A DNA stretch of 11,394 nt, from positions 1 through 11,394 of IMG/VR virus record IMGVR_UViG_2687453449_000005. One strand, given 5' to 3'. Positions 1 to 11,394 of this stretch are shown here, in pieces. Numbering within the stretch: position 1 is the stretch's first letter; each line of letters opens with the position of its first letter. This DNA is from a virus (taxonomy: Duplodnaviria > Heunggongvirae > Uroviricota > Caudoviricetes). The position numbers and the translations under genes are program-made. A model generated the notes under the pieces. It was given only the letters and a program-made list of their open reading frames with translations, was not told where the DNA came from and ran no database searches.

Positions 1-90
1 TCACTCTGCCAGATGGCGCAATGCCATCTGGTATCACTTAAAGGTATTAAAAACAACTTTTTGTCTTTTTACCTTCCCGTTTCGCTCAAA
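1..90. other. Host chromosomal flank of the lambda attB site (B' arm side of attR)
   Basis: Reverse complement of 60-97 reads ...CAAATTAGTATAAAAAAGC preceded by GAGCGAAACGGGAAGGTAAAAAGACAAAAAG, which matches the E. coli attB/attR B' arm as I recall it (CTTGAGCGAAACGGGAAGG...). Recall-based; not verifiable here. Confidence 0.7.
9..31. repeat. Inverted repeat hairpin CCAGATGGC-GCAAT-GCCATCTGG in host flank
   Basis: Perfect 9-bp arms with a 5-nt loop seen directly. No adjacent T-run on either strand, so a terminator role is not supported; function unknown. Confidence 0.4.
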
Positions 91-105
91 TTAGTATAAA
101 AAAGC
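91..105. other. attR core: 15-bp lambda common core (TTAGTATAAAAAAGC = reverse complement of GCTTTTTTATACTAA)
   Basis: Exact 15-bp core string, flanked on one side by host-like sequence and on the other by lambda P-arm-like sequence. Confidence 0.85.
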
Positions 106-250
106 TGAACGAGAAACGTAAAATGATATAAATATCAATATATTAAATTAGATTTTGCATAAAAAACAGACTACAAAATACTGTAAAACACAACATATGC
201 AGTCACTATGAATCAACTACTTAGATGATATTAGTGACCTGTAACAGAGC
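106..250. promoter_or_regulatory. Lambda attP P arm (Int arm-type / IHF / Xis / Fis binding region), here part of attR
   Basis: TGAACGAGAAACGTAAAATGATATAAATATCAATATATTAAATTAGATTTTGCATAAAAAACAGACTAC...CAGTCACTATGAATCAACTACTTAGATG.TATTAGTGACCTGTAACAG matches the lambda P arm as recalled, in reverse-complement orientation. Confidence 0.8.
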
Positions 251-292
251 ATTAGCGCAAGGTGATTTTTTGTCCTCTTGCGCTAATTTTTT
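251..292 (+). terminator. sib / tI-like hairpin with T-run (lambda int retroregulation and terminator element)
   Basis: ATTAGCGCAAGG ... CCTCTTGCGCTAAT inverted repeat followed by TTTTTT, about 150-190 bp from the core on the P-arm side, where lambda sib/tI lies. Confidence 0.65.
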
Positions 293-783
293 GTCAACTC
301 ACTGGGTTAGTTGAATTTACAACCATGCTCAGTATCTCGATAAGCGCAGGGAGATGATGCAGTGGTGGGCGGACTGGCTTGATGAAAGTGTGCTGTAATC
401 CTCATATCCAACCTAAGAGATATGCACAATTTTGTGAATAAGATATTGAGAATTAGCAAAAGTTTTATTTTGCGTATCATCAATTCAGAATACAAAGTCA
501 CATGCTAATGTTCTGCATTGGTATCTTTTGCTTATCCATGTCTACATTATCGCCAAAATAATAGGTTTTGTCTATCAATTATTTGAATTACTTCCATGAA
601 ATTATAACGCACTTGTAATTTTTGATTATTTTTACCTCTCAAGTGTTTTGTTTCTTCTATCTCTTTGTATTTTTAGCGAAAGTATGCCATATTGCATTCT
701 AATATAACGTGGCGTTGTTTCTGTTTAATGATTTAAATAGTTCAACATAATATTTGCTAACAAATTATATCCAAGCAAATCAT

Positions 784-1929
784 ATGATATTATCATTACA
801 ATATATTAGAGGAATAGCATCATTACTTGTTGTTTTATTCCACTTCAGATTCTTGCTAAATGAGCACTACTCTCAGAAAGATTTGGGTGACCTATTATTT
901 GGGAATGGGCTGTCTGGAGTTGATATATTCTTCATATTAAGTGGATTTATCATCGTATACTCAACAAGAAAGAAGGAAGTTAATGATACTTTCTCATTCT
1001 CAATTAGAAGAATATTTAGAATATACCCATTACTAATCACATGCTGTTGCATGTATTACATAATAAACACTCAATTTCTAACCTATGCTACAGTTGAAAA
1101 CTTTAGAACCTTACTTATTTCCATCATTCCATTAAATATAAACTGGAATGAAGGCGCTCCATTCTTTGCCTATAATCTTTTGTACCCGGCCTGGACGATA
1201 ACATATGAAATTGGTTTCTATGTTTTTTTCGGGGTATCAATGTCTATTTCGCATAAATACAGAACAATTATCTGTTCTGTTTTTATAATCATGGTGGTCT
1301 CATTTACACAATACTATGTAAATGGAAATATATCATTTTCAGGTGATGTTAGTGCAGGGTTATTTACAGATAACTGGTTATTAGGATATACAAATGTTAT
1401 TACATCTCCAATGATGTATGAATTCGTTATTGGGATGTTTCTTTCTGAAATATTTACAAACATCAACGAAAGCAAAAGTATTAAAAGGATACTTTCAAAG
1501 TATTCGCTTCAAATACTATGGATTTCATGTGGTATATCCATAATATTATTCATTATCCAGCGACCTTATGGGCATGGATTGAATGGATTTGGGACTATGG
1601 CGATGATACTTATTGCATCATCATTAGTATATGAATACTGCAATATAACACCCAAAATAAAAATATTTAATTTCCTTGGTGAAATATCATATTCTTTATA
1701 TCTAATTCACGCCGTGATACTTGCTTTGTTCTTCTATTATAAGGCAGACCTTGCTGAAATTGGCATAACTGGTGGATTTTCTGTGTTTTTTTCCTTGGTT
1801 ATTATCTCAATAACTGCATCATATCCAATATATATTCTCATTGAAAAGCCAATGATAAATATAGGTAAACGTTTAATTGACAAGAGAAATAAGAGCATTA
1901 ACAAAAAAGAAACCGAAATAACAGCGTGA
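784..1929 (+). CDS. Acyltransferase family 3 (AT3) integral membrane O-acyltransferase, Oac/OafA-like; candidate surface-polysaccharide O-acetylase
   Basis: Track ORF 754..1929 starts at TTG; first ATG is 784 (MILSLQYIRGIASLLVVLFHF). AT3 hallmarks: N-terminal R...H in TM1 (YIRGIASLLVVLFH), GxxGVDIFFILSGF, and RRIFRIYP motif. Highly hydrophobic and AT-rich. Confidence 0.8.
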   Translation: MILSLQYIRGIASLLVVLFHFRFLLNEHYSQKDLGDLLFGNGLSGVDIFFILSGFIIVYSTRKKEVNDTFSFSIRRIFRIYPLLITCCCMYYIINTQFLTYATVENFRTLLISIIPLNINWNEGAPFFAYNLLYPAWTITYEIGFYVFFGVSMSISHKYRTIICSVFIIMVVSFTQYYVNGNISFSGDVSAGLFTDNWLLGYTNVITSPMMYEFVIGMFLSEIFTNINESKSIKRILSKYSLQILWISCGISIILFIIQRPYGHGLNGFGTMAMILIASSLVYEYCNITPKIKIFNFLGEISYSLYLIHAVILALFFYYKADLAEIGITGGFSVFFSLVIISITASYPIYILIEKPMINIGKRLIDKRNKSINKKETEITA

Positions 1930-1942
1930 TAATGACAAAGTT

Positions 1943-1964
1943 AGTGCCGGGATACCCCGGCACT
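1943..1964. terminator. Bidirectional intrinsic terminator candidate between convergent genes
   Basis: AGTGCCGGG-ATAC-CCCGGCACT perfect 9-bp stem, followed by ATTTAATCTATTT on + and a T-containing tract on -. Sits between the stop at 1929 and the - strand stop at 1967. Confidence 0.5.
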
Positions 1965-1966
1965 AT

Positions 1967-3304
1967 TTAATCTATTTCGTAAGTGACAGTGATTATCACT
2001 TCTGCATTATTACCCAAAACATTTTGATATATATTCATATTACCTGATAATGTAGTTGCTCCAGTAAGAGTTATATAACTACTATTTGCATCAACCCTTG
2101 GAAGTAAAGCGGTAACTGCTGTTGTTAAATTATTATAGTAGCCTGTACTTCCAACATATGCAGCTTTATTGCTTGATACATATGGTAACCCTCCAATTCT
2201 GAAACCATCTCCTGACCCAATTAAAGTTATACCAAGGTGACATGTTGCCGTTATGATATTGCCACTCCTGACATAATTTCCTTTCTGCTGATAATATGTG
2301 GCATTACCACCTACAGTCGGAATCCAAACTCCAGTTTCTATATCACCACATGACCAGTCTTCTGCTGTTGTTAGTTTTCCAGTAACAATAAATTTACTTC
2401 CACCACCAGAATTATAAGGAACAAAAATTGGATTTATTCTTGCATAAGTGTTACCGGTCTGCTCATTAAGATCATTTCTATCAATAAGAACTTGACCATT
2501 TTCGAAGTTTGAAATCTGGCAGTCTGTTACACTCCAGTCTCTTAACTTCACATCAGCATCCATGACACCAATAAGCTTACCAGCATTACCAATTTTTTCT
2601 TTATGCATATTTACATACACATTTCTTACCGTAACAGACTGAGGGAACAGATAATTAGCAGGATTAGTTTTATCACTTAAAACAGATATTACCCAAGGTC
2701 TGTATTGAGTACTTACTTCACAATAAAATCCATCAATAAGCGTTCCAGATGCCGCTGGCCCAAGTAGTATTCCACCTGTAGAGTGATGCGCACTACCTCC
2801 AATTACTCTCCCCTTAACGCAGTTAATATAGGCAAAATATCCTAAATCTTGATTGTCATAGGCTGACATAGCACAGTCTCTAACTGTTACTCGAGAATTT
2901 CCTCCGTCATAAGCTGAGCCATCAGTTTTCTTACCAACTATTGATATAAAGTTACCAATAGCAACTCGACTATAAAAAGTTTTTTTATAACACCCCTCAA
3001 TTAAAATATCCCAGTTTTCAAACTGAGCATATATATCATAAGAGCTGGCATTCCCATAATCTATGAAATCACAATATCTTATTTTCGGCGTATAAACGGC
3101 ACTTTTTATCTTTATACCACCTAATGCTCTCTCCCCACCTGTGAATCTAATGCCAGTAACGGTGTAATCGCCTTGATAGAAATTATCTGCGGTAGGATTA
3201 TTTTCGTCAGAATCATCACCCAATATAATAGCAAATTCACTCCCTGAATAATTAATTGTCGCCCCCTTATTTGAATATATAGTTACAGGTCTTATAAACT
3301 CCAA
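1967..3304 (-). CDS. Tailspike/tail-fibre-like receptor-binding protein, putative right-handed beta-helix glycanase domain; probably 5'-truncated remnant
   Basis: 445-aa ORF rich in G/N/S/T/Y/V with repeated short beta-strand-like segments (e.g. VTVRDCAMSAYDNQDLGYFAYINCVKGRVIGGSAHHSTGGILLG), typical of pectate-lyase-fold tailspikes. The ORF begins at TTG directly after an in-frame TGA; first in-frame ATG is far inside; no head-binding N-terminal domain. Confidence 0.5.
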   Translation of the reverse strand: MEFIRPVTIYSNKGATINYSGSEFAIILGDDSDENNPTADNFYQGDYTVTGIRFTGGERALGGIKIKSAVYTPKIRYCDFIDYGNASSYDIYAQFENWDILIEGCYKKTFYSRVAIGNFISIVGKKTDGSAYDGGNSRVTVRDCAMSAYDNQDLGYFAYINCVKGRVIGGSAHHSTGGILLGPAASGTLIDGFYCEVSTQYRPWVISVLSDKTNPANYLFPQSVTVRNVYVNMHKEKIGNAGKLIGVMDADVKLRDWSVTDCQISNFENGQVLIDRNDLNEQTGNTYARINPIFVPYNSGGGSKFIVTGKLTTAEDWSCGDIETGVWIPTVGGNATYYQQKGNYVRSGNIITATCHLGITLIGSGDGFRIGGLPYVSSNKAAYVGSTGYYNNLTTAVTALLPRVDANSSYITLTGATTLSGNMNIYQNVLGNNAEVIITVTYEID

Positions 3305-3623
3305 AGAATTACTTATTAGATACTCTCCATAAGGAAAAAAATCTCAACTGGTGGTGAGTACTTTGGTCTGGAGTTTACGTAATTCATAATATTGATTACA
3401 CCAACATCATAGATAATCGCCACCTTCTGGCGAGGAGCTCCTGATGCAATTAATCGCCAGGCCTACGCCCATTATTCAGGGGTAAATTTTGGACGGAGCC
3501 CCCAATTCCATCCTCAATTCTCCCTCGCACTGAGGAGTAGTAAGTGCAATTATTTAAAAAATCGCAAACAGAATATTATCATTTATTCTTGCATTCTGTT
3601 AATTAAAACCACACATAAAAACG

Positions 3624-3653
3624 TTGATACTTGATAAGTAAGTAGAGTATTAT
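3624..3653 (+). promoter_or_regulatory. Sigma70-like promoter candidate for the downstream acyltransferase
   Basis: TTGATA (3624-3629), 18-bp spacer, TATTAT (3648-3653), about 40 bp upstream of the ATG at 3697. AT-rich context, so false positives are likely. Confidence 0.3.
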
Positions 3654-3696
3654 TAATGGTTTTAATAACGAACCTTTTAATCATGAGAAGCCTCAA

Positions 3697-4722
3697 ATGA
3701 CTAGTACCAATAACATAACAAGAAAAAAAATGGATGGAGTAACAATCTTAAGATTTATAGCTGCTTTTTATGTGTTTATTTTTCACATTAACATGAGAGT
3801 CCCCGTTAATTTTGGAGAGCTTATTAATAAAACCATTAGCAATGGCGTCATTGGCATGAGTATTTTCTTCATGCTTTCTGGTTTTGTTTTGACTTATAAT
3901 TACTATGGTTCCTTGTCAAACAATTACTTCAGGAAGCGAATAGCAAGAATATTTCCAGCCTATTTATTTTGTGGGCTTTTAACCCTCCCATTTTTGTTAT
4001 CCAGCGATGCAAGCTTTTTAAAAATGATTGCAAGCATATTCTTGTTTGTTACTGGAATGCAATCATGGATTTATCAGACCTTCGATTTTTGGAATTTTAG
4101 CGGTACCTGGTCAATATCAGTGGAATTGTTTTTTTATGCCCTGTTTCCATTTTTGATAAAAAACATCAACAAAAACAATGTAATTTATGTTTTACTTTTT
4201 TCATATTTATCTTCAGCATTATTAATCCCATTATCTGATATAATTCAGGGACCTGTAGTTTGGTCCGTATATTACGCAACTCCAATATACAGGTTACCAG
4301 AATTTGTGGTGGGCGTCTGTATCGCAATACTTTTTTTAAATGGCTATCGTGTTAACCATTATACATGGCTATTAAGCATTTTATTATTTCTGTATGCTAC
4401 CACCCAGCAAAACAATAACTCCATGGGGGTGAACTATCTCACAATTCCTGCGATATCAATTATGTTATTGCACCTGGCAAAAATCAACATCAAAAACAAT
4501 ATTGCAAACAGAGCGATCATTTACTTTGGAGATATAAGTTATTCGTTTTATTTGATGCAATTACCTATATTATATTACCTGGATCATAATAAAAACTCAT
4601 TTATTCTTAACTATGGTCTTTTTAGCTGGCTTGTACTTTTTGTTATTAATACTGCAATGGCATCATTATCTTATCACTTTCTGGAGAAGAACGATAAAAT
4701 CAGAAAAATAATTACATCCTGA
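3697..4722 (+). CDS. Acyltransferase family 3 (AT3) integral membrane O-acyltransferase, second divergent copy
   Basis: ATG start; ILRFIAAFYVFIFH (R...H), GVIGMSIFFMLSGF, and RKRIARIFPAY motifs. Shares family motifs with the 784..1929 protein but is otherwise clearly divergent. Alternative start at the internal M (MDGVTIL...). Confidence 0.8.
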   Translation: MTSTNNITRKKMDGVTILRFIAAFYVFIFHINMRVPVNFGELINKTISNGVIGMSIFFMLSGFVLTYNYYGSLSNNYFRKRIARIFPAYLFCGLLTLPFLLSSDASFLKMIASIFLFVTGMQSWIYQTFDFWNFSGTWSISVELFFYALFPFLIKNINKNNVIYVLLFSYLSSALLIPLSDIIQGPVVWSVYYATPIYRLPEFVVGVCIAILFLNGYRVNHYTWLLSILLFLYATTQQNNNSMGVNYLTIPAISIMLLHLAKINIKNNIANRAIIYFGDISYSFYLMQLPILYYLDHNKNSFILNYGLFSWLVLFVINTAMASLSYHFLEKNDKIRKIITS

Positions 4723-4723
4723 T

Positions 4724-4749
4724 TTATTAGGGGGGTACCCCCCTAATAA
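4724..4749. terminator. 26-bp perfect palindrome TTATTAGGGGGGTACCCCCCTAATAA; bidirectional terminator candidate or protein-binding site
   Basis: Perfect 12-bp arms around a central TA, between the convergent stops at 4722 (+) and 4764 (-). No strong U-run, so terminator function is uncertain. Confidence 0.45.
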
Positions 4750-4763
4750 TACACCACATAATT

Positions 4764-5159
4764 TCAACGTATTATCTCTGGCCTTTCTGGCCAGGTTATT
4801 TCTGGAATTAAGGACAAATCCACTGACATTAAATTATTAACATATTCCTTCCATAACAAAAGATTGTTCTTGTTATTTTCACTTATAATACCGAGTAACA
4901 AATCTGACTGCCAGTTCATAATTAAACCATTAGCACTATCCAGCAGACACTGTCTTTCATTCTCTGCCTCACGAAGTAATTCATCATGTGTTTTTGGCGG
5001 CTGCGTAGGTGACGAAAGCTTTCCCTTATCATAGAACCAACCAATTCTTACATTATCGGATACAGGTATAACTAACGCATTAGTTGGTTGCCAGGCACTC
5101 TCACCATCCCATACCGCAATATTGGTAACAACACCATTTTCTATAACGGCATAGTTCAT
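4764..5159 (-). CDS. Tail fibre assembly protein (Tfa-like chaperone)
   Basis: Track ORF starts at TTG (5174); first ATG at 5157-5159 gives MNYAVIENGVVTNIAVWDG... (131 aa), with Tfa-like LGIIS motif and C-terminal W/P-rich tail. The ATG overlaps the upstream stop in a TGATG arrangement (translational coupling). Confidence 0.7.
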   Translation of the reverse strand: MNYAVIENGVVTNIAVWDGESAWQPTNALVIPVSDNVRIGWFYDKGKLSSPTQPPKTHDELLREAENERQCLLDSANGLIMNWQSDLLLGIISENNKNNLLLWKEYVNNLMSVDLSLIPEITWPERPEIIR

Positions 5160-5644
5160 CACGCATACTCCCAAATGATTGCAATACCAGCCATTCCGCT
5201 ACCTCCGGCACGCTGCTGCGTCGCTCCACCGTAGACACAGGCACCACCGCCTCCACCACCATGGCCATTAGCATTAATACCTTCGCCTACAATGGCTTGT
5301 GACCCAGCCCCCGCACCAAGGATTGAATCGCCGCCAGGCCCCCCCATCGCCAGACTGCCGGAATACCGAACGCCTGGTGAGCTATAACCGCTTCCAGACC
5401 CGATAATATTTGCACCTGTAAATCCCGGCTCAGTATATGCTCCATACGGACCAACAACCCCTGGAGCAGTTCCTTCAGCAAGAACATTCCCACCAAGGCC
5501 ACCTTTGGCAATTATGGTATTGCCGAAAGAGGTTGTTCCCCCGGGAGCACCAACCGACGCACTTGCACCAGTGCCACCATATCCGATTGTCACAGTAGTT
5601 ACGGTTGGATTATCCACGCGAGCTTTAACATACTCCCCGGACAT
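5159..5644 (-). CDS. Tail fibre protein, glycine-rich C-terminal (receptor-binding) domain; likely remnant of a longer side-tail-fibre gene
   Basis: 161 aa, extremely Gly/Ala/Ser/Thr-rich (GGxG repeats, GHGGGGGG), as in C-terminal domains of enterobacterial prophage side tail fibres; immediately followed by tfa. ATG start is preceded by a G-run with no properly spaced SD. Confidence 0.6.
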   Translation of the reverse strand: MSGEYVKARVDNPTVTTVTIGYGGTGASASVGAPGGTTSFGNTIIAKGGLGGNVLAEGTAPGVVGPYGAYTEPGFTGANIIGSGSGYSSPGVRYSGSLAMGGPGGDSILGAGAGSQAIVGEGINANGHGGGGGGACVYGGATQQRAGGSGMAGIAIIWEYA

Positions 5645-5666
5645 CCCCCCGCCACCACAAGCAGCA

Positions 5667-6428
5667 TTATTGGGATAGCTTCTCCACGCTGTAGGTACGC
5701 AAATGCGCTTTGTAGACCAGCTGCGCCGCGCCGACAGTAGCGCTGTCGAACGCGGTAAGACGATCCCAGATACGCTCTACAACCGACATTCCCCATTCGT
5801 TCTCGGTCATCTTCTGCTGAAATGGCAGCGTGACGCCATCAAAGCGAATCAGTCGACTGTGATGAATGCGCCAGGCAGGAATTCCCGTTGCTGTGGTCAC
5901 CACATCGTAAAACTCAGGTTTACCCAGGTCCGGCCCCATATCTTTAATGCGGCGGGTCAGTACCGGGTCAATCATCCAGCGGTCGAGCGGGAGAATCCCC
6001 TTAAACTTGCCCTTACCGATGGTTTCGGGTCGCAGCGGGGTCATTGGTGCCTGCCCCTCAATCATGATGAAACCCACCGCGCCGCCGTAGAGGCGCGACC
6101 ATTTCAGCACGTCATTCAGCGCATCCCAGATTTGCAACTCATCCAGTTGTGATTCGAGAATGCCACGATCTTTTGCATCAATTTCCGAAGTGATGCGAAT
6201 GCCTTTGCGGGTCATATCATCTGGGATAGCATCGACCGCTTCGCCGATGATCCAGGACGAACGATAGGACCATTCCACCAGCATGCGGTTACGACTGGTG
6301 AAATTAGCCCGGTAGGTGGATGCTGAGTGCTGGTTAGGTGTCTGCATCCCTACGCGGGCAATAAAATTCTCATAACCATCAGCTGTGGCCTGCGCAGTTC
6401 GCCGCAGGGCTTGTTTGTTTCGTGCCAT
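5667..6428 (-). pseudogene. Probable portal protein, N-terminal fragment (253 aa), truncated by deletion
   Basis: Start ATG overlaps the terminase large subunit stop (TGATG), the usual terL-portal coupling. At 253 aa it is far shorter than any portal and is followed after 22 bp by a tail-fibre C-terminal ORF. Portal assignment is by position and general character only. Confidence 0.45.
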
Positions 6429-8050
6429 CAGGCCTGTCTCCCTAGCAGCTCCCAGATGTTCAGGGCTGAATTCATTGGGGCATAGTTGATCATCACCGAG
6501 TCGGCAAGGTTTGGCGATCGGGTTCCATCAGGCTGTTTATCAATAACGATTTTTCCCACACCATTAATGGAATAGGTCGGCTGCGAAAGCTCGATGATGA
6601 GTTTATCTTTGAGTGCCATGCTACTGCTGATTGAGATGATTTCGTCCGGGTTGTAAGCCATACCTTCAACCACGGCGCGCCAGGTATTCTGAAAAAGTTT
6701 ACGTAACCGCCACCAGCTCTGGGCTTTGGCGTTAGCGAAGAAGTCCTTGTTCAGACGTGCGGCTTGCCCGTTGTCCCCGCGAACAGCTTCATCATCTGGA
6801 TCAAATACCGCGCCACTACCTCGAAACGGTGTGGCGAGTATTGACGGTCGACGCGCAACGTTACGCAGTTCGTTGATAGCGCGTGCATCGCCGCGAACGC
6901 CAGCGCCCAGCCCGTCCTCGTCAAAGCGAAACTCTTCGAGGTTGTCCTGTTCGCAAAAACCGAAAACCTTCTCGACGGACTGATAAATGTCACTGCCCAC
7001 ACCGGACCATTCCCGCACATTTTCCAGGAGGAAGCCATGACGGGTGGAAAATGCATTTTTGTCCCTGCCTTCGTCGGCGACATCCATCGCGCCAAGTCGT
7101 TTGCCTGTTGGCTGGATACCCAGTTTGATATGTGCATCAACGGCAGCCTGTACCCATTCGGATGGAATCAGGACGCCTTCCGCTGATGCGCTGTAGTTCA
7201 GATCAAGTTCCTGTGCCACCACCACCGGATTATCGATTTTCTCGCATTCCCTGCGATACCACTCTTCATCCTTGCGAGGATCATCCCGCCAGTGGAATGT
7301 GAATACCGGTATCTTCCCGCCATGACGCTTCTGAGCGAACGGGTTCGCCATGCCGTTAACTGAACTCAGGTCAATACGGCAACGCGTCGTTTGTGACAAC
7401 GCCGCATCAATCAGCAGAGGACGCTGAAGGAATGCAGCCTCATCAACCAGATAAAGCGTGGTACGGTCACCACGACCAATATTATCGCCAGCCTCGCCTT
7501 TGATAACGGCACCAGTTTCAGGAAACTCAACACGCATATATGGCGCGTGCTTCTTCTCGCTCCACGAACCGCGAAACTCTACAGGTAGTGTTTCCACGAA
7601 CTTGCGCGCCTTCCAGAACAATGCTTTCGGGTCACCGGTGCTGTCGACGTATTCCTCTTTACGGGAGCCGAAACCGATAACCATTTCTTTGTTGAAGAGA
7701 CAAAGCGAGCAGGCCAGTCCGATCGCGGTCCAACTGAGCCCCATTTCACGGGATTTTTCGGTAATACCATTCTCCCTATTGCCCCAGCGTTCCATAATCC
7801 AGTGGATCCACTCCTCCTGCTTAGGGAAGAGTAAAAACGGAATGGTCACCGGCAGGCCATAATCAATATTACGCGGGTCCGTTGTCATGCCCCAGTCGAT
7901 GATGAACTGAGCCGGGTTGGTTCGGTAAAACTGTTTTAGTGCTGGCAATATTTCAGGGTTCTGGCGAATGCGCTGTAAGCGTTCCATCCGCCATTCAAAA
8001 ACCATCTGGTAATCAGGATTTTTAAAATCGAAGGGGAATGGTAACGGCAT
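6428..8050 (-). CDS. Phage terminase large subunit (ATPase + nuclease)
   Basis: 540 aa; Walker-B-like [10 protein letters not shown]-terminal nuclease-domain motifs ([22 protein letters not shown]) of the kind seen in P22/Sf6-type terminases; ATG start 2 nt after the terS stop. Confidence 0.85.
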
Positions 8051-8052
8051 AC

Positions 8053-8559
8053 TTAGCCCATCATTTTTCTATACGCCTCTGCAGCCTGCTCCGGCGTTAA
8101 GTTGGTAATTTCTGTTCTGACTGGTCCTCCATCAGCGCCAGTCACTTCATTTTTGACGTTGTCTTTAAACGCCTGAACAGAAACATGACGCCCAAGCAAC
8201 TCAAGGTTTTTAACCTTATCAGGCCATTTGATTTTCTTCAGAAGTGCGGCGCTATCTGCGGATACCATCTCCATGACATCCATTCCTGATAGCGTTGTGC
8301 GCCATACCTTAGGCCAGTCTTTAATGGGTTTTAGATCACCGTTTTGCAGGAGAATGTCGAGCACATCCATCTGGTCGATTTCAATAAGGCGATTAAGTAC
8401 ATATTCTGCATTAATACCAACAAGATCATTGCGTTGCGCTTTCAGTTCAGCGATTCTGAATTGTATGTCAGGTTTTGACAGGTTTTCGGATGCGGTACGG
8501 TTAGCTGTCTTTGCGCTGTACCCCGCCCGAATATCGGCAATGAATAACAATCCTCGCAC
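8053..8559 (-). pseudogene. Terminase small subunit, N-terminally truncated at a recombination junction
   Basis: ...IRAGYSAKTANRTASENLSKPDI matches the conserved terS block, but the preceding residues do not resemble a terS N-terminus; the only start is GTG, an in-frame TAA lies 5 codons upstream, and no SD is present. Confidence 0.6.
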
Positions 8560-8581
8560 TCGCGGGGATTTCTTTTATCTG

Positions 8582-8607
8582 AACTCGCTACGGCGAGTTT
8601 TGTTTTA
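8582..8607 (+). terminator. Intrinsic terminator candidate (AACTCGC-TACG-GCGAGTT then TTGTTTT)
   Basis: 7-bp stem plus T-rich tract seen directly; lies in the junction/intergenic zone upstream of the 55-aa ORF. Confidence 0.3.
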
Positions 8608-8619
8608 TGGAGATGATAA

Positions 8620-8787
8620 ATGCACTTCCGAGTCACAGGTGAATGGAATGGAGAACCATTCAACAGAGTTATCGAAGCGGAGAACATCAACGACTGCTAC
8701 GACCACTGGATGATATGGGCGCAGATAGCACATGCAGACATAACCAATATTCGAATTGAAGAACTGAAAGAACACCAATCCGCCTGA
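8620..8787 (+). CDS. Small hypothetical protein (55 aa), lambda orf55-like, upstream of xis
   Basis: ATG at 8620 with GGAG 8 nt upstream; open frame to TGA at 8785-8787 (MHFRVTGEWNGEPFNRVIEAENINDCYDHWMIWAQIAHADITNIRIEELKEHQSA). Same position and size as the 55-codon ORF next to xis in lambda. Absent from the ORF track, presumably by length cutoff. Confidence 0.6.
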   Translation: MHFRVTGEWNGEPFNRVIEAENINDCYDHWMIWAQIAHADITNIRIEELKEHQSA

Positions 8788-8799
8788 TGGCGGTTTTTT
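8780..8799 (+). terminator. Small hairpin + T6 (CCGCC-TGAT-GGCGG-TTTTTT) directly after the 55-aa ORF
   Basis: 5-bp GC stem, 4-nt loop containing the ORF stop codon, and six T; seen directly. Not a named lambda terminator that I can recall. Confidence 0.3.
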
Positions 8800-8800
8800 C

Positions 8801-8840
8801 TTGCGTGTAATTGCGGAGACTTTGCGATGTACTTGACACT
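8801..8840 (+). promoter_or_regulatory. pI-type cII-dependent int promoter (TTGC-N6-TTGC box)
   Basis: TTGCGTGTAATTGC at 8801-8814 is a cII recognition repeat just upstream of and overlapping the xis start, as for lambda pI, whose transcript starts inside xis. Confidence 0.5.
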
Positions 8841-9045
8841 TCAGGAGTGGAACGCTCGCCAGCGACGCCCAAGAAGCCTTGAAACAGTTCGTCGATGGGT
8901 GCGCGAATGCAGGATATTCCCTCCTCCGGTTAAGGATGGAAGAGAATATCTGTTCCACGAATCAGCGGTAAAGGTTGACTTAAATCGACCAGTAACAGGT
9001 AGCCTTTTGAAGAGGATCAGAAATGGGAAGAAGGCGAAGTCATGA
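8827..9045 (+). CDS. xis: Excisionase Xis (lambda Xis, 72 aa)
   Basis: MYLTLQEWNARQRRPRSLETVRRWVRECRIFPPPVKDGREYLFHESAVKVDLNRPVTGSLLKRIRNGKKAKS matches lambda Xis as recalled; GGAG SD 9 nt upstream; 23-nt overlap with int as in lambda. Confidence 0.95.
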   Translation: MYLTLQEWNARQRRPRSLETVRRWVRECRIFPPPVKDGREYLFHESAVKVDLNRPVTGSLLKRIRNGKKAKS

Positions 9046-10093
9046 GCGCCGGGATTTACCCCCTAACCTTTATATAAGAAACAATGGATATTACTGCTAC
9101 AGGGACCCAAGGACGGGTAAAGAGTTTGGATTAGGCAGAGACAGGCGAATCGCAATCACTGAAGCCATACAGGCCAACATTGAGTTATTTTCAGGACACA
9201 AACACAAGCCTCTGACAGCGAGAATCAACAGTGATAATTCCGTTACGCTACATTCATGGCTTGATCGCTACGAAAAAATCCTGGCCAGCAGAGGAATCAA
9301 GCAGAAGACACTCATAAATTACATGAGCAAAATTAAAGCAATAAGGAGGGGGCTGCCTGATGCTCCACTTGAAGACATCACCACAAAAGAAATTGCGGCA
9401 ATGCTCAATGGATACATAGACGAGGGCAAGGCGGCGTCAGCCAAGTTAATCAGATCAACACTGAGCGATGCATTCCGAGAGGCAATAGCTGAAGGCCATA
9501 TAACAACAAACCCTGTCGCTGCCACTCGCGCAGCAAAATCAGAGGTAAGGAGATCAAGACTTACGGCTGACGAATACCTGAAAATTTATCAAGCAGCAGA
9601 ATCATCACCATGTTGGCTCAGACTTGCAATGGAACTGGCTGTTGTTACCGGGCAACGAGTTGGTGATTTATGCGAAATGAAGTGGTCTGATATCGTAGAT
9701 GGATATCTTTATGTCGAGCAAAGCAAAACAGGCGTAAAAATTGCCATCCCAACAACATTGCATGTTGATGCTCTCGGGATATCAATGAAGGAAACACTTG
9801 ATAAATGCAAAGAGATTCTTGGCGGAGAAACCATAATTGCATCTACTCGTCGTGAACCGCTTTCATCCGGCACAGTATCAAGGTATTTTATGCGCGCACG
9901 AAAAGCATCAGGTCTTTCCTTCGAAGGGGATCCGCCTACCTTTCACGAGTTGCGCAGTTTGTCTGCAAGACTCTATGAGAAGCAGATAAGCGATAAGTTT
10001 GCTCAACATCTTCTCGGGCATAAGTCGGACACCATGGCATCACAGTATCGTGATGACAGAGGCAGGGAGTGGGACAAAATTGAAATCAAATAA
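9023..10093 (+). CDS. int: Tyrosine integrase (lambda Int, 356 aa)
   Basis: MGRRRSHERRDLPPNLYIRNNGYYCYRDPRTGKEFGLGRDRRIAITEAIQ...SQYRDDRGREWDKIEIK matches lambda Int essentially throughout; catalytic residues at lambda numbering R212, K235, H308, R311, H333, Y342 are all present. Confidence 0.97.
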   Translation: MGRRRSHERRDLPPNLYIRNNGYYCYRDPRTGKEFGLGRDRRIAITEAIQANIELFSGHKHKPLTARINSDNSVTLHSWLDRYEKILASRGIKQKTLINYMSKIKAIRRGLPDAPLEDITTKEIAAMLNGYIDEGKAASAKLIRSTLSDAFREAIAEGHITTNPVAATRAAKSEVRRSRLTADEYLKIYQAAESSPCWLRLAMELAVVTGQRVGDLCEMKWSDIVDGYLYVEQSKTGVKIAIPTTLHVDALGISMKETLDKCKEILGGETIIASTRREPLSSGTVSRYFMRARKASGLSFEGDPPTFHELRSLSARLYEKQISDKFAQHLLGHKSDTMASQYRDDRGREWDKIEIK

Positions 10094-10172
10094 TGATTTT
10101 ATTTTGACTGATAGTGACCTGTTCGTTGCAACAAATTGATAAGCAATGCTTTTTTATAATGCCAACTTAGTA
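10094..10172. other. attL remnant: lambda P' arm plus first 6 bp of the core (TTAGTA), interrupted by IS10
   Basis: AATGATTTTATTTTGACTGATAGTGACCTGTTCGTTGCAACAAATTGATAAGCAATGCTTTTTTATAATGCCAAC + TTAGTA matches the lambda P' arm up to the core, then breaks into an IS10 end. Confidence 0.85.
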
Positions 10173-11394
10173 CTGAGAGATCCCCTCATAATTTCCCCAA
10201 AGCGTAACCATGTGTGAATAGATTTTGAGTAAGCAGGGTTGCAGCCACGAGTGAGTCTTCCCTTGTTATTGTGTAGCCAGAATGCCGCAAAACTTCCATG
10301 CCTAAGCGAACTGTTGAGAGTACGTTTCGATTTCTGACTGTGTTAGCCTGGAAGTGCTTGTCCCAACCTTGTTTCTGAGCATGAACGCCCGCAAGCCAAC
10401 ATGTTAGTTGAAGCATCAGGGCGATTAGCAGCATGATATCAAAACGCTCTGAGCTGCTCGTTCGGCTATGGCGTAGGCCTAGTCCGTAGGCAGGACTTTT
10501 CAAGTCTCGGAAGGTTTCTTCAATCTGCATTCGCTTCGAATAGATATTAACAAGTTGTTTGGGTGTTCGAATTTCAACAGGTAAGTTAGTTGCTAGAATC
10601 CATGGCTCCTTTGCCGACGCTGAGTAGATTTTAGGTGACGGGTGGTGACAATGAGTCCGTGTCGAGCGCTGATTTTTTCGGCCTTTAGAGCGAGATTTAT
10701 ACAATAGAATTTGGCATGAGATTGGATTGCTTTTAGTCAGCCTCTTATAGCCTAAAGTCTTTGAGTGACTAGATGACATATCATGTAAGTTGCTGATAGG
10801 TTTCCAGTTTTCCGCTCCTAGGTCTGCATATTGTACTTTTCCTCTTACTCGACTTAACCAGTACCAACCCAGCTTCTCAACGGATTTATACCATGGCACT
10901 TTAAAGCCAGCATCACTGACAATGAGCGGTGTGGTGTTACTCGGTAGAATGCTCGCAAGGTCGGCTAGAAATTGGTCATGAGCTTTCTTTGAACATTGCT
11001 CTGAAAGCGGGAACGCTTTCTCATAAAGAGTAACAGAACGACCGTGTAGTGCGACTGAAGCTCGCAATACCATAAGTCGTTTTTGCTCACGGATATCAGA
11101 CCAGTCAACAAGTACAATGGGCATCGTATTGCCCGAACAGATAAAGCTAGCATGCCAACGGTATACAGCGAGTCGCTCTTTGTGGAGGTGACGATTACCT
11201 AACAATCGGTCGATTCGTTTGATGTTATGTTTTGTTCTCGCTTTGGTTGGCAGGTTACGGCCAAGTTCGGTAAGAGTGAGAGTTTTACAGTCAAGTAATG
11301 CGTGGCAAGCCAACGTTAAGCTGTTGAGTCGTTTTAAGTGTAATTCGGGGCAGAATTGGTAAAGAGAGTCGTGTAAAATATCGAGTTCGCACAT
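10173..11394 (-). mobile_element. IS10 (IS4 family), partial in window: inside end at 10173, element continues about 107 bp beyond the window
   Basis: Terminal CTGAGAGATCCCCTCATAATTTCCCCAAAGCGTAACC matches the IS10 inside end as recalled. Transposase stop lies 14-16 bp inside this end and the 402-codon ORF starts at the last window base, fitting the 1329-bp IS10 layout. Confidence 0.93.
10186..11394 (-). CDS. IS10 transposase (DDE, IS4 family), complete 402 aa
   Basis: MCELDILHDSLYQFCPELHLKRLNSLTLACHALLDCKTLTLTELGRN... with DAGF and YSKRMQIEETFRDLK (YREK signature) motifs; matches Tn10/IS10 transposase as recalled. Confidence 0.95.
   Translation of the reverse strand: MCELDILHDSLYQFCPELHLKRLNSLTLACHALLDCKTLTLTELGRNLPTKARTKHNIKRIDRLLGNRHLHKERLAVYRWHASFICSGNTMPIVLVDWSDIREQKRLMVLRASVALHGRSVTLYEKAFPLSEQCSKKAHDQFLADLASILPSNTTPLIVSDAGFKVPWYKSVEKLGWYWLSRVRGKVQYADLGAENWKPISNLHDMSSSHSKTLGYKRLTKSNPISCQILLYKSRSKGRKNQRSTRTHCHHPSPKIYSASAKEPWILATNLPVEIRTPKQLVNIYSKRMQIEETFRDLKSPAYGLGLRHSRTSSSERFDIMLLIALMLQLTCWLAGVHAQKQGWDKHFQANTVRNRNVLSTVRLGMEVLRHSGYTITREDSLVAATLLTQNLFTHGYALGKL

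Follow-up and report, generated by a model that had tools for sequence, protein, structure and literature searches.

The int-xis region analysed here represents the promoter-distal part of a lambda-type pL operon, with orf55, xis, int, the P' arm and the internal, cII-dependent promoter pI, and the element that carries it is, to judge by its sequence, lambda-B, a defective prophage already known from the E. coli B lineage. We consider it quite likely that this cassette is now close to silent, that it would yield Int alone and only by way of cII, and that the element has been fixed in the chromosome by an IS10 insertion. The regulatory logic is that of textbook lambda, and both the locus and its kind had already been described; what this copy adds is a private IS10 and a private deletion. 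The original prediction, which was made from the letters only, held up in its account of the structure and of the dependence on cII, but not in its proposals that a helper could drive Xis production and that antitermination could be supplied in trans.

The window (the whole stretch of DNA that was analysed, 11,394 nucleotides) comes from E. coli RS76 (CP013048.1), an avian pathogenic O7:HNT strain isolated from a Brazilian broiler. This strain is closely related to E. coli B; its sequence type is given as ST93 in the text of its genome paper and as ST73 in the abstract. When the window was compared by megablast with 5,426 complete E. coli genomes, 10,172 bases (window 1-10172) were 100% identical to the E. 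coli B strains REL606, BL21 and ATCC 11303 and their derivatives. A few natural isolates also matched this part at 100%, the match being split into two pieces. The REL606 counterpart (REL606 787873-800058) occupies the lambda attachment site, with ybhB/bioA on one side and ybhC on the other, and 20.5 kb of RS76, flanks included, equal REL606 at 100%, two events excepted. Thus, one deletion and one IS10 aside, the element has the properties of lambda-B: insertion at the lambda attB, a size of about 12 kb and the same gene content. A BL21 genome paper speaks of a 12.1-kb "lambda-B prophage" common to the B lineage, for which it cites Studier et al. 2009 (PMC4395058). The situation had been treated as an unrecognised one in the original prediction; instead, the locus corresponds to this described prophage and is 100% identical to that of REL606.

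The whole element, of about 10 kb, lies inside the window, from the attR core at one end to a split attL, ending at 10172, at the other. Pfam and PHROG searches revealed two O-acetyltransferase-like genes, a 445-aa ORF, a tail-fibre assembly gene, a tail-fibre fragment, a portal fragment, terL, a truncated terS, orf55, xis and int (coordinates of the main features are given in Table 1). An Rfam scan of the window gave no match.

Table 1. Positions of the features discussed in the text, in window coordinates.
Feature	Position	Strand	Details
attR (B'-O-P), followed by the lambda P arm and the sib/tI hairpin	87-296	+	core TTAGTATAAAAAAGC at 91-105, exact match
Two O-antigen acetyltransferase-like genes flanking a 445-aa ORF	754-1929 (+), 1967-3304 (-), 3697-4722 (+)		phrog_3333, E=3e-72 and 2e-40 (acetyltransferase-like genes)
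Junction of the 2,009-bp deletion relative to REL606	8529-8533	.	5 bp of microhomology
Two terminator-like hairpins, each followed by a T-rich tract, 5' of orf55	8549-8570 and 8581-8600	+	terminator scan; conserved in lambda
orf55, homologue of lambda lambdap35, function unknown	8620-8787	+	55 aa; phrog_676, E=4e-39; 2 aa differences from lambda
Third terminator-like hairpin, CCGCC-TGAT-GGCGG (8780-8793) and T6 tract	8780-8803	+	terminator scan and fold; identical to lambda
cII box of pI, TTGC-N6-TTGC	8801-8814	+	TTGCGTGTAATTGC; sole such match in the window
Rest of the pI core promoter (-10 region and transcript start), overlapping the xis start codon	8815-8840	+	transferred from the lambda map; sequence identical to lambda
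xis, excisionase	8827-9045	+	72 aa; Pfam Exc PF07825, residues 1-72, E=4e-41
int, lambda-type tyrosine integrase	9023-10093	+	356 aa; Pfam domains (see text)
attL P' arm, C' core site and first 3 bases of the overlap region; cut by IS10	10094-10172	+	C' core site CAACTTAGT (10163-10171)
IS10	10173-11394	-	1,329 bp in the source genome, 1,222 bp within the window; inside end abuts attL
IS10 transposase gene, directed towards int	10186-11394	-	402 aa; DDE_Tnp_1 PF01609

Both recombination genes are intact. The N-terminus of Int carries the arm-type DNA-binding domain (PF09003 Arm-DNA-bind_1, residues 1-69, E=7e-33), and the core-binding and catalytic domains were also found (PF22022; PF02899, Phage_int_M/SAM; PF00589, Phage_integrase, E=2e-40). 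All six catalytic residues are present (R212, K235, H308, R311, H333 and Y342 in lambda numbering). As in lambda, the full-length Exc-family Xis is encoded directly upstream of int, whose start overlaps the end of xis by 23 bases. In an ungapped comparison with lambda, the window from 8544 to 10172 showed 21 mismatches in 1,629 bases (98.7% identity). These change three residues of Int (H164P, A245T and I248V, with 353/356 residues identical) and one of Xis (G59S, 71/72 identical), together with five and six synonymous changes, respectively; orf55 has two substitutions and two synonymous changes, and two further mismatches are intergenic.

Note that this Int is 100% identical to the Int of phages HK106, 2B8, JEP4 and Huey and one residue apart from those of HK97 and 434 (99.7%), while Xis is 100% identical to HK106 Xis. 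Since the proteins of HK106 serve a viable phage, Int and Xis are almost certainly active, being functional in sequence terms, and Int would be expected to recombine lambda att sites, as the viable phages that share it at 100% identity carry a lambda-like attP. What separates them from lambda is natural allelic variation of working phages and not decay, because the same proteins occur in viable phages; inactivation of Int by H164P, A245T and I248V is ruled out on the same ground. The original prediction that Int and Xis are full length and keep every catalytic residue was thus borne out by the open reading frames, the Pfam domains, the six residues and the identity with HK106.

By contrast with these genes, nothing of the lambda early region is left. 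A tblastn search of the window plus 42 kb of REL606 found none of lambda N, cI, cro, cII, cIII, O, P, Q, exo, bet and gam (best E = 0.03), and no boxB-like nut sequence was present in the window when three mismatches were allowed. There is thus no pL-N-nutL unit in cis from which xis and int could be expressed together. The proposed loss of cII, pL and N with the whole early region is confirmed, since both searches were empty across an element bounded by attR and attL.

The control signals next to xis are preserved. The direct repeat TTGC-N6-TTGC, whose two halves lie on either side of the -35 region, has a chance expectation of 0.70 matches per window, which rules out the box as statistically meaningful alone. 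The cII box is nevertheless real, because the 76 bp from 8780 to 8855 are 100% identical to lambda pI; from 8780 on the sequence is also identical to that of HK106. The placement of the box relative to xis is that of lambda. It had been placed over the xis start: the box and its likeness to lambda pI stand, but 12 bases separate its end from the xis ATG at 8827. The start point of the pI transcript we take to be near window 8840 (about 29065 on the lambda map), 13 bases inside xis. In lambda, pI is located within xis, so that int is transcribed independently of xis (PMC2951348), and pI is activated by cII (PMC5300877). From the identity with lambda, the promoter described here should likewise respond to cII and should be weak without it (PMC5300877, PMC2951348).

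Upstream of pI lie the three terminator-like hairpins. The region of the first two (8549-8600) folds at -25.3 kcal/mol (z = -5.67) and differs from lambda at 8572, in the T-rich tract after the first hairpin, and at 8596, in the second stem. The third is followed by a T tract that extends into the first TTGC of the cII box. A crude consensus scan, which weak or non-sigma-70 promoters would escape, detected no sigma-70-like site on the + strand in the interval 4923-9023.

Our results suggest the following model. Without a promoter of its own, and lying behind the three hairpins and about 4 kb of antisense packaging genes, xis would not be transcribed, and Xis is probably not made because of this arrangement. 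int would be transcribable only from pI, weakly as long as cII is absent. A lambdoid phage whose cII has the lambda-type specificity would activate pI in trans, on infection or induction, and, since pI lies within xis (PMC2951348), the outcome would be Int and not Xis. The pI transcript would meet no tI/sib downstream, since in this prophage, as in others, tI/sib is at attR, 8.7 kb upstream of int; it would instead continue into IS10, opposite to the direction of the transposase gene. The Int so produced would be unable, alone, to excise the element. In addition, basal pI activity or read-through could give low levels of Int.

A different reading is that such low constitutive Int, possibly with Xis (from basal pI, a cryptic promoter or read-through), is retained for a benefit to the host, such as leaving the att site recombinogenic or aiding att-lambda phages. 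int and xis have indeed stayed free of damage in a prophage that is otherwise heavily deleted. Moreover, DE3 stands alone between ybhC and ybhB in BL21(DE3) (in the region 748-791 kb), while BL21 has lambda-B; lambda-B was therefore displaced when DE3 was introduced, and the ancestral locus can exchange if recombination functions are given. However, the listed lambda-B carriers are 100% identical over the shared part, so the intactness says nothing about selection in place and may simply reflect youth. Likewise, synonymous changes relative to lambda are in excess in free phages too, and this excess hence predates the decay. Independent evidence of selection in place was not found, the later loss of attL function in RS76 suggests that mobility is not under selection, and the consensus scan detected no promoter-like site. 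We therefore regard a host-serving role as unlikely: int and xis are probably intact by recent descent from a working phage, and the cassette most likely has no selected role.

It is quite unlikely that a co-resident lambdoid prophage, by way of cII or antiterminated read-through, induces Int together with Xis in trans and makes the cassette a trans-inducible helper of integration and excision. The intact cII box and pI, and the intact Int and Xis, had suggested this possibility. N acts only on transcripts that carry nut and that started from a promoter in cis. Since pL and nutL would have to be present in cis, and both are absent, a helper cannot lend antitermination; with no pL, no boxB-like site and three hairpins before xis, the read-through envisaged in the original prediction finds no support here. 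Nor did the consensus scan detect a promoter-like site upstream of xis. As for cII supplied by a helper, the predicted expression of Int stands, while that of Xis does not, because pI within xis gives Int only (PMC2951348). The further suggestion that the locus influences lambda-like phages with the same att specificity loses its force, since a helper brings its own int and xis; the resident copy would matter only for int-defective phages. Near-silence, broken by Int alone when cII is supplied, therefore remains our preferred reading of the cassette.

Next, we considered the two att sites. The attR region is intact and 97.6% identical to lambda 27534-27742. The sib/tI hairpin beside it (about 249-293) folds at -24.1 kcal/mol (z = -5.7); its loop region has one extra T and one substitution relative to lambda. 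At the other end, 9854-10172 shows zero mismatches to lambda up to the point where the sequence is broken, and the REL606 attL is uninterrupted at the corresponding place. The interruption is an IS10, with a length of 1,329 bp, a 402-aa DDE transposase and a perfect 9-bp target duplication, AACTTAGTA, at 10164-10172 and again beyond the element. IS10-like copies in other genomes are annotated as the IS4-like ISVsa5 family. The split attL of the original prediction is thus explained by a 1,329-bp IS10, inserted from 10173 with a 9-bp duplication, which interrupts the core after AACTTAGTA.

With attR intact and attL split, the pair of intact att sites required by the normal attL x attR reaction is missing, and the prediction that the element cannot excise in this way was correct. 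The RS76 element would be fixed even if Xis were supplied, because IS10 puts 1.3 kb between one part of attL, the P' arm and C', and the other, the remainder of the core with the B-O half. The IS10 target AACTTAGTA in the att core agrees in part with the symmetric hot-spot consensus of Tn10, NGCTNAGCN, and it adjoins the H' site that is bent by IHF. At its outside end, IS10 presumably carries pOUT, facing ybhC in the sense direction, and this end might drive ybhC.

The second event that separates RS76 from E. coli B is the deletion. Window 1-8533 equals 15001-23533 of the REL606 locus and window 8529-10172 equals 25543-27186, both at 100%. The missing DNA held the 5' end of terS and, ahead of orf55 in E. 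coli B, the Rz1-like, DUF551, DUF4752 and ASCH genes. The deletion junction was found in 0/5,426 complete E. coli genomes, and so was the junction of IS10 with attL, which a one-genome-per-species search did not find either. Since their junctions are absent from the genomes searched, the deletion and the IS10 are private events and not a recurrent arrangement. The RS76 genome is a SPAdes assembly of 150-bp and mate-pair reads for which BL21(DE3) served as the ordering reference, and gaps were closed by PCR and Sanger sequencing. That both events are assembly artefacts, the true locus being identical to E. coli B, is very improbable. In favour of it, the assembly was a short-read one ordered on a genome that lacks lambda-B, and neither junction recurs in the 5,426 complete genomes; against it, a mis-join would not give an IS10 of exactly 1,329 bp with a perfect 9-bp duplication of the att core (which rules out an artefact for IS10), the deletion junction is clean, with its 5-bp microhomology, and the authors of the genome used PCR and Sanger sequencing for gap closure.

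Through the 9-bp target duplication that accompanies IS10 insertion, a core-only site has arisen beside ybhC. On this side of IS10 the duplication leaves CTGCTTTTTTATACTAAGTT, followed by the end of IS10. The resulting site, CTGCTTTTTTATACTAAGTTc (7038-7060 of the RS76 stretch, just past the right end of the window), has the structure B-O-C' and no arm sites. At 20/21 core positions it is as in the intact attL, the 21-mer of the regenerated core being CTGCTTTTTTATACTAAGTTC. This B-O-C' site resembles a fresh attB and could act as a free target for att-lambda phages. RS76 would then combine a fixed lambda-B remnant, a re-created free att-lambda target and a resident int that the cII of an incoming phage could switch on, a combination that we put forward only tentatively and hold to be less likely than not to operate. 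If it does, RS76 could be cleanly lysogenised even by int-defective lambda-type phages.

The terminase and portal genes (5680-8230) share 99% identity with their counterparts in Escherichia phages vB_EcoM-606R2, 689R2, 611R5 and 683R1, and 87% with those of Salmonella phage SEN34; because of these matches, the packaging module of lambda-B is not lambda-like, unlike its int-xis-att module. The N-terminal portal fragment (5667-6428, - strand) matches Pfam Phage_portal_3 (E=1e-55). In RefSeq, the B-strain protein is named "anti-CBASS protein Acb1 family protein", which looks like a naming error. The 445-aa ORF between the acetyltransferase-like genes had no Pfam or PHROG match and is possibly a remnant of a tailspike or receptor-binding protein. 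The moron-like genes of this acetyltransferase region may be the part of lambda-B that selection has kept.

The weight of these results for basic biology is small, as they concern textbook lambda regulation in a documented E. coli B element. Their interest is practical: in strains of the B lineage (BL21, REL606 and wild ST93 relatives) the lambda att site is occupied and a perfect Int and Xis are encoded. This can affect integration tools based on att-lambda as well as int-defective lambda vectors. The RS76 variant is, in turn, a tidy natural case of a prophage fixed by a single IS10 in the att core.

Finally, we compared the element with known systems. Among the closest is lambda-B of REL606 and BL21, at the same site between ybhB and ybhC; the RS76 copy lacks 2,009 bp upstream of orf55 and carries, in addition, an IS10 in the attL core. 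The lambda int-xis-pI module (J02459 / NC_001416, 27733-29361) has the same order of orf55, xis, int and P' arm, and its pI, cII box and upstream hairpins are kept here, with 8780-8855 and the P' arm identical. Unlike in lambda, int and xis of lambda-B are detached from pL, nutL, N and cII, and in RS76 attL is cut by IS10. HK106, 2B8, JEP4, Huey, HK97 and 434 also differ from lambda-B in this respect, as they are complete, viable temperate phages with regulators of their own. DE3 of BL21(DE3), which uses the same attachment site and the same lambda recombination module, is the mirror image: it keeps a cI-like gene, cro, cII and Q, while its int is split by the T7 RNA polymerase insert; lambda-B has done the opposite, keeping int and xis and losing the regulators. 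The immobilisation of prophages by att damage is a general phenomenon, reviewed under the terms 'grounded' and cryptic prophages (PMC6379469). As in the grounded prophages of that review (PMC6379469), the att site of the RS76 element is damaged and its DNA eroded by deletion; here, however, the recombinase genes remain perfect, and one IS10 in the core makes up the damage.
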